A program made the position numbers and the translations under genes. The notes beneath the pieces are model-generated. The model had not been told where the DNA came from. It saw only the letters and a program-made list of their open reading frames with translations, and did no database searches. A DNA stretch of 64,000 nt from an uncultured Acidimicrobiaceae bacterium (GTDB lineage Bacteria > Actinomycetota > Acidimicrobiia > Acidimicrobiales > RAAP-2): the NCBI GenBank assembly GCA_963716515.1, contig OY970319.1:2013290-2077289 (forward strand), in the 5' to 3' direction. Positions 10,794 through 15,996 of the stretch are shown here, piece by piece. Position 1 is the stretch's first letter. Every line of letters starts with the position of its first letter.

Positions 10794-11069
10794 TCAGCCG
10801 CCGGCCACGGCCGGCACGAGCGACACGGTCTGGCCCGATTCGAGCGCGGTGTCCAGGCCGTCAAGGAAACGGACGTCCTCGTCGGCCACGAAGACGTTGA
10901 CGAAACGGCGCAAGGCGCCGCGATCATCGAGGACTCGAAAGGCGATTCCCGGATAGGCCGCGTCCACCGCGACGATGGCTTCGCGCACCGTGGCGGCTTC
11001 AACCGGCACTTCGCCGGCTCCTCCGACAAGGGTCCGCAACTGGCTGGGCAGGCGGACGGTGACGCTCAT
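10794..11069 (-). CDS. MoaD/ThiS/CysO-family sulfur carrier protein
   Basis: MSVTVRLPSQLR..., RRFVNVFVADEDVRFLDGLDT, free C-terminal AVAGG; the ATG overlaps the upstream stop. Confidence 0.92.
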   Translation of the reverse strand: MSVTVRLPSQLRTLVGGAGEVPVEAATVREAIVAVDAAYPGIAFRVLDDRGALRRFVNVFVADEDVRFLDGLDTALESGQTVSLVPAVAGG

Positions 11070-12313
11070 GACGCGGCCACCAACTGGTGGAAGCGCAGCG
11101 CCTCTTCGGCCGCCGCCAGCGAGGGCGTGATCGTCGAGCTGACGGTCGCGGTGTCGACGATGGCGTCGAGCGTCTTCAGTCCGTGGCCCGAGATAATCGC
11201 CACGATCGATTTGTCGCGGTCGATCGTGCCGCGGTTGATCATCTGACGCAACGAGGCGATCGTGACGCCGCCGGCCGTCTCGGCGAAGATGCCTTCGGTC
11301 TCGGCGAGCAGTCCGATGCACTCGAGGATCTCGGAGTCGGGCACCGAACCACAGTCACCGCCGTGGGCGCGCAGTTCGTCGAGCACGTACGGACCGTCGG
11401 CCGGATTGCCGATGGCCAGCGAGCGCGCGATCGTGTTGGGACGTTGCGGCGTGACGACGTCGGCTCCCGAGGCGAAGGCGCTGGCGATCGGCGAGCAGCC
11501 GGTCGCCTGGGCACCGAAGAGCACGGGCTCGTCGCCCTCGACGAGGCCGAGCTCGACGAACTGCTTGAACCCCTTGGCGACCTTGGTGAACTGACTGCCC
11601 GAGGCCAAGGGCACCACCACTTGGGCCGGCGTGCGCCACCCCAGCTGTTCGCAGATCTCGAAGGACAAGGTCTTGGACCCTTCGGCGTAGTAGGGGCGAA
11701 GATTCACGTTGAGAAAGGCCCAGTCGTCGTGCTCGGCGACCAACTCCACGCACAGTCGATTGACGTCGTCGTAGTTGCCCTCGACGCCGAGGACCGTACC
11801 GCCGAAGATCGCCGCCATCGCGATCTTGGACTTCTCGAGGTCGGCCGGGATAATGGTCACGCTGGGCCATCCGATGAAGGCGGCGTGCGCCGCCACCGAC
11901 GTCGCCAGGTTGCCGGTCGACGCGCAGGCCGCGGTCGTGAACCCGAGGCGTCGGGCGCTGGAGAGCGCCACCGACACCACGCGGTCCTTGAAGGAACCGG
12001 TGGGATTGCGCGTGTCGTCTTTCAACCACAGTTCGCGCACGCCCAGTACCTCAGCCAGACGACTGGAGCGACGAAGCGGCGTCCAGCCGGCCCCGAGGTC
12101 GACCGGTTCGGCACCGGGATCGGGCAACAACGCGCCGTAGCGCCAGATGGAAGTGGGGCCACCGGCGATTGACTCGCGGGTCACGACGCGTCGAGCCGCG
12201 TCGAGGTCGTAATCGACCTCTAGGGGACCGAAGCAGAAATCACACGAGTACCGCGCCTCACTGGGATAGTTGGCCCCGCACTCTCGACATAGAAGACCTG
12301 TAGCGAAACTCAT
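11066..12313 (-). CDS. thrC: Threonine synthase-family PLP enzyme, probably an O-phosphohomoserine sulfhydrylase-type paralog
   Basis: N-terminal CxxC..CxxC, NPTGSFKDR (PLP Lys), CASTGNLA; start at ATG 12313 behind an AAGGGAG RBS. The functional refinement is inferred from the riboswitch and the sulfur carrier. Confidence 0.85.
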   Translation of the reverse strand: MSFATGLLCRECGANYPSEARYSCDFCFGPLEVDYDLDAARRVVTRESIAGGPTSIWRYGALLPDPGAEPVDLGAGWTPLRRSSRLAEVLGVRELWLKDDTRNPTGSFKDRVVSVALSSARRLGFTTAACASTGNLATSVAAHAAFIGWPSVTIIPADLEKSKIAMAAIFGGTVLGVEGNYDDVNRLCVELVAEHDDWAFLNVNLRPYYAEGSKTLSFEICEQLGWRTPAQVVVPLASGSQFTKVAKGFKQFVELGLVEGDEPVLFGAQATGCSPIASAFASGADVVTPQRPNTIARSLAIGNPADGPYVLDELRAHGGDCGSVPDSEILECIGLLAETEGIFAETAGGVTIASLRQMINRGTIDRDKSIVAIISGHGLKTLDAIVDTATVSSTITPSLAAAEEALRFHQLVAAS

Positions 12314-12321
12314 AACTCCCT

Positions 12322-12428
12322 TTTCATCGTTCGGCCTTTGGCACCTGGTGTGATGAGCGGGTCGCTCGAGTATCACACTGGTTGTCGCGACTTCAACGGG
12401 GCCGTCCCTCAGTCGCTCTTGATGACCC
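12322..12428 (-). ncRNA. SAM-I-superfamily (S-box) riboswitch with short or absent P4
   Basis: Minus strand reads GGTCATC-AAGAG-CGACT-GAGGGACGGCCC-CGTTGA-AGTCG-CGACAACC...GGTGCCAAA...GATGA. P1 is TCATC/GATGA, P2a CGACT/AGTCG, P3 extension GTGTGAT/ATCACAC. The P1 3' strand abuts the RBS. Confidence 0.82.
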
Positions 12429-12500
12429 CTCAATTCTCGCCGACCGCGCAGGCCCGTGTCAAGTGCGGTCGCGCCGGTCGGGACCCCTAACCTCTTACGA

Positions 12501-13277
12501 GTGAGCAGCCCTGACGTCCCGTGGACGCTGAGCCGTGAGGAGTTCAGTCTCGAGCGCGTCTTCAAATTGAAGGTGGCGACGACCGTCGCGGTCGTCGTCC
12601 CGGCGCGCAACGAGTCGGCCACCGTAGGCGCCGTGCTTGACGCCGTCCTCGCCCATCGTGAACTGGTCGACGAACTGGTCGTGGTCAACGACGGTTCGGT
12701 CGACGACACCTCCACGGTCGCGGACCACCACGGCGCTCGCGTCGTTCGTTTCGAGGGACCCAGCGGCAAGGGCGAGGCCATGCGAGCCGGGCTCGCCGCG
12801 ACCTCTTCGGAGTTGATCGTCTTCCTCGACGCCGACGTCGTCAACACGACGTCGGAGTTCGTGGCCCGCCTGATCCAACCGCTCCTCGAACGCTCGGAAA
12901 CCCAATTGGTAAAGGGATATTACGAGCGGCCGCTGCACAACATGCCGACCGGAGGCGGGCGGGTCAACGAGCTGGCGGCTCGCCCCATCCTCTCGCTGCT
13001 CTACCCCGGACTCGGCGAAATACGACAGCCCCTCGCCGGCGAAACCGCCGGACGACGCAGCGCCTTCGACGCCATCACCTTGGAGAAGGCCTACGGCGTC
13101 GAGATCGCCCTCTTGATCGACATCGCTCGTCAGTTCGGTGTGCGCAGTTTGGCGCAAGTCGACCTCGGTGTGCGACGCCATCGCAATCGTCCACTCGAAG
13201 AGTTGCGCCCGATGTCGATGGACGTGTTGCGCGCCGCGCTGAAGCGTTACTCCGTGCACCTGCCGCCGCAGACGTAG
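12501..13277 (+). CDS. gpgS: Glucosyl-3-phosphoglycerate synthase
   Basis: VVPARNE, GKGEAM, FLDAD, GGRVNELAARP, QPLAGE, RRHRNRPL; TAACCT -10 lies 7 nt before GTG 12501. Confidence 0.9.
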   Translation: MSSPDVPWTLSREEFSLERVFKLKVATTVAVVVPARNESATVGAVLDAVLAHRELVDELVVVNDGSVDDTSTVADHHGARVVRFEGPSGKGEAMRAGLAATSSELIVFLDADVVNTTSEFVARLIQPLLERSETQLVKGYYERPLHNMPTGGGRVNELAARPILSLLYPGLGEIRQPLAGETAGRRSAFDAITLEKAYGVEIALLIDIARQFGVRSLAQVDLGVRRHRNRPLEELRPMSMDVLRAALKRYSVHLPPQT

Positions 13278-14056: not shown

Positions 14057-15727
14057 TCAGACTCCGAACACTTCCACTCTCGAGTACGAAGAGCTCGACT
14101 GGCCCGCGATTGCACCTTCTCCAGCTGAAGATATTGAGACCCCATGATCTTTCAGGATGTTTAGGTCGTGGCGCAAAAAGATTGCAGCATTCGCGGCGCG
14201 CGAACGACTAAGAGCCACGTTCAAAGATCTGAGACCGGTGGCGGCTGTATACCCAAAGAGCGTGACCGTGTGGTATTTCCTCGAGACGATCGTGTGAGCA
14301 ATGCGATTTATCTGGCTTTTCAATGCCGCGGAAAGCAACGATGAATTAGATTTGAAAACTCCAATCGCACTGAACAATGTTGCGAGCTTGTGGCCGCTCC
14401 ACTGCGCGTAAAGAAGGATCGAGGCCGTCACCGATACATGAGAACCAACAAGATACTTAGTTCCCGTTCCGTTGGCGCTCGTATTCCAATTATCTAATAG
14501 AAATCCTGCGCGAATTATCCCGGCCTGTCCCGGCACAGTAATAGTCGAACCTGGCGACGCCGAGATTGAAGCAACAGAACCATTACCACCATTGGCGTTG
14601 AACGACAAAGTATCGACGACCGGAAGGGTCCATTGGGCATACAACACCAAGTCCAATTTGAATGAGAATTGCGATCCATCGATATAAGAAGTGCCACTGC
14701 CGTCACGAGAGGTGTTCCATCCAGCAAACGAATGTGTGGTGTCCACAAATTCTGGCCGGAGATTTACAAATGGTGTTAACGGAGTTGGAGCACTTTCGGT
14801 CAAATCGGTGCTAACAGAGTCCGAAGCACTGTCATTTTCGTTGAAGGTCACAGTGTGAAAAGTAGGCACTACCGCTATTAGGGACCATTGGGCGTAAAGG
14901 CTCATGTCGGAAGCAAAAGAGTATTGGGATCCGTCTCCGTAGGAGATGCCCGATCCGGTGGCCGTTGTATTCCAACCGGAAAAACTGTAACCGGGATAAG
15001 TGAATGCGGGCTGAAGGCTCGCAAAACTCGTCAATTGAGTTGGAGCACTTTCGGTCAAATCGGTGCTAACTGAGTCCGAAGCACTGTCATTTTCGTTGAA
15101 GGTCACAGTGTGAAAAGTAGGCACTACCGCTATTAGGGACCATTGGGCGTAAAGGCTCATGTCGGAAGCAAAAGAGTATTGGGATCCGTCTCCGTAGGAG
15201 ATGCCCGATCCGGTGGCCGTTGTATTCCAACCGGAAAAACTGTAACCGGGATAAGTGAATGCGGGCTGAAGGCTCGCAAAACTCGTCAATTGAGTTGGAG
15301 CACTTTCGGTCAAATCGGTGCTAACTGAGTCCGAAGCACTGTCATTTTCGTTGAAGGTCACAGTGTGAAAAGTAACTATTGCAATCCATTGAGCGTAGAG
15401 ACCAATGTCTGAACTGAATGTGTACGTTGAACCGTCTGCATATGAGGCACCGCCGCCATCAGCTGACGTGTTCCAGCCCTGAAATGTGTACCCAGCGTTC
15501 GAGAAACCTGGACTGAGATTTTGAATCAGAGTAAGAGATTTGAGTGAAGATCCATTCTCGAAAGCTGTCACCGAGTCAGATGCGCTTGCATTTTCGGAAA
15601 AAGTCACAGTGTGCACTTCTGGGAATGCGTTCGCCGGTGTTGATATTGCGAAAGTCATCAATATCAGCAGGAAAACGCTGGCAACATTCAATATTGATGC
15701 GATCCGCGAGGTGGATTTGGAAGTCAT
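14057..15727 (-). CDS. Secreted InlB B-repeat (Listeria-Bacteroides repeat) protein with C-terminal OmpA-like domain
   Basis: Signal peptide ending ANA, five [HTVTF.EN...GY.F.GWNT...G.G..Y..G....LYAQW] units, then F...S..L...GYT...N..LS..RA...RVEV; lower GC than the flanks. Confidence 0.8.
   Translation of the reverse strand: MTSKSTSRIASILNVASVFLLILMTFAISTPANAFPEVHTVTFSENASASDSVTAFENGSSLKSLTLIQNLSPGFSNAGYTFQGWNTSADGGGASYADGSTYTFSSDIGLYAQWIAIVTFHTVTFNENDSASDSVSTDLTESAPTQLTSFASLQPAFTYPGYSFSGWNTTATGSGISYGDGSQYSFASDMSLYAQWSLIAVVPTFHTVTFNENDSASDSVSTDLTESAPTQLTSFASLQPAFTYPGYSFSGWNTTATGSGISYGDGSQYSFASDMSLYAQWSLIAVVPTFHTVTFNENDSASDSVSTDLTESAPTPLTPFVNLRPEFVDTTHSFAGWNTSRDGSGTSYIDGSQFSFKLDLVLYAQWTLPVVDTLSFNANGGNGSVASISASPGSTITVPGQAGIIRAGFLLDNWNTSANGTGTKYLVGSHVSVTASILLYAQWSGHKLATLFSAIGVFKSNSSLLSAALKSQINRIAHTIVSRKYHTVTLFGYTAATGLRSLNVALSRSRAANAAIFLRHDLNILKDHGVSISSAGEGAIAGQSSSSYSRVEVFGV
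14782..15374. repeat. 255-bp tandem duplication (about 2.3 near-identical copies) inside the InlB-repeat gene
   Basis: GAGTTGGAGCACTTTCGG recurs at 14782, 15037 and 15292; only one mismatch noticed across the aligned span. Confidence 0.95.
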
Positions 15728-15996
15728 GACGACAACCCATTGCTCGTCATGGCGAAACCGCTGATGGACAAAAAGCGCATGGGAAATCCTTCGTTGAAGA
15801 TGGGCGCTCTTGAAGAAACGAGCGTGATTCCTGCAGCCGACACACCGAAGGGGGCCAATAGAACTCAAACGGTGTGCGACGCCTCCAATTTGCATTTGGG
15901 GACGATTAAATCCTGCTGCAGTGTTTCCCTTGCGTGGCAAGACTAGGCAACGTATCTTTGTAATTCGTAGGGCCTTAGGTCCCTATTTGATCCGCC

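Follow-up and report, generated by a model that had tools for sequence, protein, structure and literature searches.

Why should a gene whose homologues in public databases are all named threonine synthase stand behind a riboswitch for S-adenosylmethionine (SAM) and be translationally coupled to a gene for a sulfur carrier? This question is raised by a two-gene locus on the minus strand of a 64,000-nucleotide stretch of DNA (the window) from an uncultured Acidimicrobiaceae bacterium, the genome of which is assembled in one 2.58-Mb contig (C1 in Table 1). Based on our analysis we suggest that the locus is a metM-metO operon that produces homocysteine from O-phosphohomoserine and is repressed by SAM via a SAM-I riboswitch, a reading to which we assign a probability of roughly 0.85. 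The reaction of the enzyme, by analogy with a Streptomyces system and with CysO/CysM, and the OFF logic of the switch are inferred, whereas family, gene order and distribution of the components can be read directly from the genomes.

The enzyme belongs to the ThrC family, i.e. its sequence matches Pfam PALP with 235 bits and TIGR00260 (thrC) with 260.5 bits at a cut-off of 167, and both an N-terminal CxxC...CxxC ribbon and the lysine that binds pyridoxal phosphate (PLP), K109 in SFKDR, are invariant across diverse relatives. As, in addition, its best solved relatives are threonine synthases and its metagenome relatives, thousands of near-identical sequences of which the named ones come from Acidimicrobiales, all carry the same label, the gene might simply encode a second threonine synthase, with the carrier serving molybdopterin, cysteine or some other pathway. 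We consider this highly unlikely, since the genome contains a better-scoring thrC (309.7 bits) in a hom-thrC arrangement elsewhere, so that the window gene is not its only thrC, and all six of the six genomes bearing such a locus likewise have a higher-scoring canonical thrC. Moreover, the window enzyme is 56% identical over 407 residues to its ortholog from Streptomyces sp. MMG1121 and 35% identical to the canonical ThrC of its own genome. A maximum-likelihood tree, a check that the initial annotation had proposed, splits canonical ThrCs of seven genomes from a well-supported long clade that holds the window enzyme, which is placed together with the Streptomyces orthologs in a 26-row Actinomycetota group (SH-aLRT 99).

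The separation in the tree is accompanied by fixed differences in the substrate region. On comparing 34 proteins of the MetM clade with eight canonical ThrCs such differences were found at residues 136-137, 204-213, 237-240 and 297-300 (P0001 numbering). Where the canonical enzymes have N.NP.RIEGQKT the MetM clade has NLRPYYAEGSKT, and further pairs of motifs, with the MetM clade named first, are STGNLA versus STGNTS, ASGS versus GNAG, and RSLAIGNP versus TAIRIGNP. These positions are candidate specificity determinants. The regulation also disagrees with a threonine synthase, as a SAM OFF switch would be the wrong logic for threonine synthesis; the threonine synthase of plants is activated by SAM. 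GapMind (PMC13759103) describes MetM as often misannotated as threonine synthase. By analogy, the window enzyme is predicted to be a homocysteine synthase that acts on O-phosphohomoserine and depends on the thiocarboxylate of MetO.

The carrier gene follows immediately, the stop codon TGA of the enzyme gene and the start codon ATG of the carrier gene sharing the sequence ATGA, and its product terminates in ...PAVAGG, i.e. with a Gly-Gly end. The pairing of a ThrC-family gene with a coupled MoaD-like gene ending in GG, noticed in the initial annotation, is therefore borne out by the family matches and the overlap. The protein resembles a MetO, as it shares 59% of its residues with a MetO ortholog from Streptomyces and 42% with the CysO of its own genome, and the presence of moaD, thiS and cysO as separate genes in the genome, as well as the conserved translational coupling to the enzyme, speaks against a carrier that serves another pathway. 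Of 80 related genome loci retrieved, 43 are such that the enzyme stop codon is followed, at a distance of no more than a few bases, by an open reading frame (ORF) of 90-95 residues with GG at its end, and RF00162, the SAM-I family, was found just upstream in 16 of 20 diverse orthologous loci sampled for the riboswitch. The riboswitch-bearing loci include all five of five Streptomyces loci, Pseudonocardia, Streptosporangium, Solirubrobacteraceae (Solirubrobacterales), Acidimicrobiia and two Chloroflexota. Eight Streptomyces orthologs were examined, and four of their carriers end in GGC, which needs trimming; these carriers fit the function of Mec given by GapMind, [MetO]-L-cysteine hydrolase (PMC13759103).

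Two observations on the Chloroflexota may be added. At the position that the carrier takes in Actinomycetota, three loci (L042, L051 and L081) have an 80-aa ORF ending in ...RVDP(V/I)xGD(V/I)(L/V/I)(E/D)G after the metM homologue. A T-box leader (104 bits; L052:4205-4631, plus strand) is located just 3' of the metM-metO pair in a relative from the Chloroflexi without the SAM riboswitch.

If the operon makes homocysteine, its distribution should be related to that of the other homocysteine routes. Our sample comprised 21 genomes of the order, many of them incomplete metagenome-assembled genomes (73-100% complete). A metM gene is found in 17 of these genomes and in 12 of the 13 that belong to the genus. 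Eight of the 21, up to 99% complete, have metM and contain neither metX nor an HTS-family metA nor an O-acetylhomoserine sulfhydrylase, whereas all four genomes without metM have metX and a sulfhydrylase, and each of the 21 has at least one of the two. Such a distribution would be expected if MetM/MetO supplies homocysteine, and, as the strongest evidence of function at hand, it argues for such a role. MetM/MetO would thus be the sole recognisable homocysteine route in eight related Acidimicrobiales genomes, which would otherwise be called methionine auxotrophs, and reading the thousands of "threonine synthase" database genes as MetM would change reconstructions of methionine pathways.

The window genome itself is less simple. 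The initial annotation had looked to an absence of metX and metY, and this expectation failed: metY is intact (768 bits) and adjoins metX, and a metA-like gene is accompanied by a second sulfhydrylase, CBS with a cystathionine lyase being present as well. The metX gene is present, but GRGRGG is followed by a change of frame; its family match falls into two parts, 3-284 and 281-350, and the end of the protein, with SDRLYP...YGHDGFL, lies in the +1 frame. Either the gene is a true pseudogene or the assembly is in error here. In genomes of the same genus metX is intact in six and absent in six. A genome search at E<=0.1 revealed no riboswitch before metY-metX, metA-sulfhydrylase, CBS-CGL, cysM-cysO, hom-thrC or thrB.

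The two homocysteine sulfhydrylases of the genome, together with an identity of only about 55% to the Streptomyces orthologs, are compatible with another possibility, namely that the enzyme is MetM-like but catalyses a different reaction, using free sulfide or forming another sulfur amino acid in place of homocysteine, in which case SAM control would reflect general sulfur status. We regard this as unlikely, given that metM is the lone recognisable homocysteine route in the eight genomes mentioned above and that no genome is devoid of both routes. Furthermore, the coupling to the carrier is conserved, and cysteine is already covered by cysO-cysM.

Provided that the operon indeed encodes MetM and MetO, the remaining components of the pathway can be assigned to genes elsewhere in the genome. 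ThrB, for which a homoserine kinase gene is present (184.7 bits), would provide O-phosphohomoserine. The only rhodanese-bearing E1 of the ThiF type, which has its rhodanese domain at the N-terminus, would adenylate the Gly-Gly end of MetO and convert it to the thiocarboxylate. In MoeZ, the rhodanese domain is located at the C-terminus. As the sole enzyme of its kind, the rhodanese-E1 presumably serves MoaD, CysO and MetO alike. MetM, a PLP enzyme with threonine-synthase fold, would then eliminate phosphate and add the thiocarboxylate sulfur of MetO at the gamma carbon, yielding homocysteine on release from the carrier. The JAMM protein Mec is encoded next to cysO (a Prok-JAB match) in a mec-cysO-cysM cluster; CysO, with GGTL at its end, has to be trimmed, unlike the MetO-like carrier with its free GG. 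That E1, JAMM protein and ThrB all work with MetO is what we infer from this gene set. A tmRNA gene adjoins the mec-cysO-cysM cluster.

The element upstream of metM matches RF00162 with 49.4 bits, where the gathering score is 44.4 and E over the entire window amounts to 2.6e-8, the alignment spanning the full model from 1 to 108, and the AAA between P1 and GGGAG bears out the view that an S-box-type aptamer abuts the ribosome-binding site (RBS) with the 3' strand of its P1 helix. The internal loop of the kink-turn (K-turn), UGA / GUUGAA, agrees with the SAM-I consensus, and the pseudoknot PK-1 can be formed (Table 1). In the cmscan alignment the P4 positions of the model are deleted and P3 appears with a long insert and a non-standard pair, GACAACC standing in place of the consensus GGCAACC. 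The mismatch is an A.C pair between A12385 and C12341, and positions 12362-12360 in the apical loop read ACC(C). A GGCC that might be taken for a relic of P4 forms the 3' strand of PK-1. The window element is thus a SAM-I aptamer cut down to three helices plus PK-1, and the initial annotation was correct in describing a P4 that is small or missing and a GACAACC variant, both of which are conserved in the lineage.

Membership in the SAM-I/IV family was considered as well and ruled out, as RF01725 had no match at the window element in a search of the whole genome at E<=10; the sole match in that search was the other riboswitch of the genome (27.5 bits, cut-off 41.1). The initial annotation had proposed this test against the Rfam models, and it leaves the element with SAM-I. 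As the start codon lies 11 nt after P1, no P5 hairpin as found in SAM-IV is possible. In the Rfam scan the SAM-IV model RF00634 competed with the other families of its clan, of which only the best is retained. A complementarity of the P3 loop to the RBS, comparable to PK-2 of SAM-IV, is present, albeit without specific covariation.

A score close to the threshold (49.4 versus 44.4), the missing P4, a short P1 and the A.C mismatch could alternatively indicate that the riboswitch is in decay and has ceased to respond to SAM, leaving the operon constitutive, and the minimum-free-energy fold of the leader alone, which does not contain the aptamer (z-score -1.17), could be taken in the same sense. 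This view is very improbable in the light of the relatives. A 20-nt pattern from the 5' half of the aptamer retrieved 111 metagenome stretches, which together with close genome relatives gave 59 distinct sequences of the compact form. In these, P1, P2a, P2b, PK-1 and P3 are paired in 94.9% of the cells, a level that was reached by none of 500 shuffles (91.3%) and that no slid register approaches, so that the structure exceeds chance. PK-1 is paired in 100% of the 59 relatives, one of its pairs being G-C in 38 and C-G in 21 and never unpaired, the pairs of P3 covary (pair 55-75 is AU in 43, GC in eight and CG in four), and the core nucleotides of the aptamer are invariant. The conserved core and the compensatory changes in PK-1 and P3 indicate selection and not decay. 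The A.C mismatch, being found in 57 of the 59 relatives, is a fixed trait of the lineage, the linker from PK-1 to P1 consists of AA(C) only in all 59, and the layout of the RBS behind P1 is the same throughout. From the invariant core nucleotides and the gene context it may be expected that the aptamer binds SAM.

The second SAM-I element of the genome (57.6 bits), which likewise speaks against decay, is also devoid of P4 and has GGAGG directly behind P1. It precedes a 146-aa ORF (MSDIRRPKRCGLF...) without any Pfam or NCBIfam match, which would accordingly be controlled by SAM. An alternative fold of the window leader, in which a copy of UCAUC within P3 pairs with the 3' strand of P1, corresponds to the minimum-free-energy structure; it was rejected as this copy is not conserved in relatives.

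How might SAM binding be transmitted to gene expression? Upstream of the aptamer a promoter-like site is present (two such sites in the region versus 0.2 expected in a consensus scan), from which transcription would begin a few bases upstream of P1. A terminator was looked for between aptamer and start codon and not found. The 3' strand of P1, GAUGA, is followed by AAA, the Shine-Dalgarno sequence GGGAG, UU and the ATG at 12313, i.e. the Shine-Dalgarno sequence ends 2 nt short of the start codon. SAM-I riboswitches often have the RBS at the 3' side of P1, and direct translation attenuation is commonest in Actinobacteria (Barrick and Breaker, PMC2258182). As the RBS starts four bases past P1 and a terminator is absent, the folded aptamer most likely blocks binding of the 30S subunit, and the operon is probably controlled by a translational mechanism, i.e. 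by direct translation attenuation. At high levels, SAM would lock P1 and PK-1 of the aptamer, which would occlude the RBS from the 30S subunit, and metO would be co-translated with metM via the ATGA overlap. An extension of P1 that covers the RBS was ruled out, since the 5' flank is neither conserved nor complementary.

The apical loops of P3 are rich in pyrimidines (U76 C69 A36 G11, i.e. 75% pyrimidine and 6% G, versus 31% G in the genome), and pairing with the RBS of the same sequence beats the median of random k-mers in 93% of 42 loop/RBS combinations; lineages with AGAGA or GGAAA as RBS have loops of the UCUCU or UUUUC type. However, a specific covariation of loop and RBS was not shown, as shuffling of the RBSs gave a mean of -4.29 versus an observed value of -4.26, with 1144 of 2000 shuffles as good. 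In view of this equal energy only a general complementarity of loop and RBS remains. Nevertheless, one may speculate that within the SAM clan the P4-less aptamers of this Acidimicrobiales lineage constitute a separate, minimal branch with three helices. Their extended and kinked P3 would use its loop to pair with the Shine-Dalgarno sequence in a PK-2-like pseudoknot without P5, SAM would hide the RBS and the A.C pair would tune the affinity, although we hold all this to be rather doubtful. In any case, the compact riboswitch is a natural minimal form of SAM-I and could help to define which peripheral elements the SAM-binding core requires.

Several points weigh against the reading of the locus as a SAM-repressed metM-metO operon. 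The orthology is based on Streptomyces genes of like locus structure other than the characterised MetM of S. albulus (A0A059WBP2), an accession that is not among the members listed (15 of more than 1000 per 90% cluster, for eight Streptomyces orthologs). The aptamer is only 5 bits over the cut-off, P4 is gone, P1 has only 5 pairs and one pair of P3 is A.C, so that the affinity for SAM could be weak. Owing to metY and the metA-like gene with the second sulfhydrylase the genome is redundant for homocysteine and on paper does not need the operon. Finally, the phyletic pattern draws on a sample with many incomplete assemblies.

The surroundings of the operon also resemble those in Streptomyces. 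The divergent neighbour gpgS, which encodes a glucosyl-3-phosphoglycerate synthase and lies outside the system, is 37% identical to its positional counterpart in Streptomyces sp. MMG1121 (L092:1181-2155, minus strand), and its position, judging from gene order, marks a synteny conserved with the Streptomyces locus. On the other side, groEL starts 78 nt downstream of metO, and, with the two genes of the operon overlapping, there is no NIL-domain gene in it; in the MMG1121 locus a groEL-like gene also appears downstream, judged from the look of the ORF list alone. Further away in the window, three near-identical repeats, each of some 85 residues (FHTVTFNENDSASDSVS...YAQW), occur in a 627-aa ORF, which probably encodes a surface repeat protein; two identical 61-aa antisense ORFs mirror its DNA repeat.

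Table 1. Positions of the metM-metO locus, its regulatory elements and other genes discussed (C1, genome contig; all other positions refer to the window)
Feature	Position	Strand	Basis
metO-like gene, 91-aa ThiS/MoaD-family sulfur carrier	10794-11069	minus	translation and Pfam PF02597, 50 bits
ATGA overlap of the two genes	11066-11069	minus	
metM-like gene, 415-aa ThrC-family PLP enzyme	11066-12313	minus	family scans, invariant residues, identity, tree
Shine-Dalgarno GGGAG	12316-12320	minus	sequence
SAM-I riboswitch aptamer, compact P4-less form	12321-12428	minus	RF00162 match and pair counts on 59 relatives
P1, UCAUC with GAUGA (5 pairs)	12425-12421 with 12328-12324	minus	
P2a/K-turn/P2b	12416-12387	minus	
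PK-1, CGGC with GCCG	12404-12401 with 12335-12332	minus	
Extended P3 hairpin	12340-12386	minus	A.C mismatch, 4-nt 5' bulge, pyrimidine-rich apical loop
Promoter-like site TTGACA, 18-nt spacer, GAGAAT	12433-12462	minus	consensus scan, 10/12 matches
gpgS (glucosyl-3-phosphoglycerate synthase), divergent	12456-13277	plus	NF010496 278.5 bits, cut-off 262
627-aa repeat ORF	14057-15940	minus	
Identical 61-aa antisense ORFs	14888-15073 and 15143-15328		
Second P4-less SAM-I riboswitch	C1:521779-521863	plus	
mec(JAMM)-cysO-cysM cluster	C1:1362315-1364071	minus	
Rhodanese-E1, PRK08762 type	C1:1495713-1496876	minus	566 bits
metX, split over two frames	C1:1829114-1830236	plus	

Compared with known riboswitches, the window aptamer shares with SAM-I (RF00162) the core sequence, the K-turn, PK-1 and the pocket nucleotides of P1 and P3, but it has a three-way junction without P4 instead of a four-way junction, a P1 of 5 bp, A.C in P3, and the RBS behind P1 without a terminator. 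SAM-IV has a PK-2 formed between the P3 loop and the 3' tail as well as a P5 hairpin, and the internal P4 of SAM-I is absent from it (PMC6890682). The window aptamer resembles SAM-IV and SAM-I/IV (RF00634, RF01725) in the absence of an internal P4 and in a P3 loop rich in pyrimidines, which is complementary to an RBS rich in purines within the 3' tail; unlike them, it has no P5, keeps K-turn and PK-1 of SAM-I, and its PK-2-like pairing is not supported by specific covariation.

As to the chemistry, in the CysO/CysM/Mec/MoeZ system of Mycobacterium tuberculosis a thiocarboxylated ubiquitin-like carrier gives sulfur to a PLP enzyme that acts on an O-phospho amino acid. The window system would follow the same carrier-thiocarboxylate logic, and the corresponding gene cluster is found in the window genome, too, yet CysM is an enzyme of the CysK/CysM family that uses O-phosphoserine and forms cysteine, and the window carrier has diverged from the genome's CysO to the extent given above.

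The closest counterpart is the Streptomyces system. MetM, MetO, Mec and MoeZ of S. albulus constitute an experimentally supported thiocarboxylate route from O-phosphohomoserine to homocysteine, according to GapMind (2026; PMC13759103) and the accompanying preprint, and an upstream SAM riboswitch of S. albulus metM, which the initial annotation did not mention, is stated in PMC12172450, quoting Hasebe et al. 2024 (Appl Environ Microbiol 90:e01247-24). In both systems a gene for a MoaD-like GG carrier comes after that for a ThrC-fold enzyme, a SAM riboswitch lies upstream and gpgS is a neighbour, the enzymes fall into the same clade, E1 and JAMM genes are located elsewhere in the genome, and the pathway coexists with an acyl-homoserine route. 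The window genome differs in that it belongs to the class Acidimicrobiia, that its two genes overlap, that its MetO ends in GG, where half of the eight Streptomyces carriers have GGC, and that its E1 has an N-terminal rhodanese domain. Moreover, the window aptamer lacks P4 and abuts the RBS, whereas in Streptomyces P4 is present and 20-90 nt separate the aptamers from the start codon. As the pathway and, according to the citing papers, its SAM riboswitch have already been published for S. albulus, the window locus is a further member in another class and not a new system, just as the initial annotation had supposed and as identities, tree and phyletic pattern now support. Taken together, our additions are modest, i.e. 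a phyletic pattern that argues for the pathway in Acidimicrobiales, together with the description of a compact form of its riboswitch.

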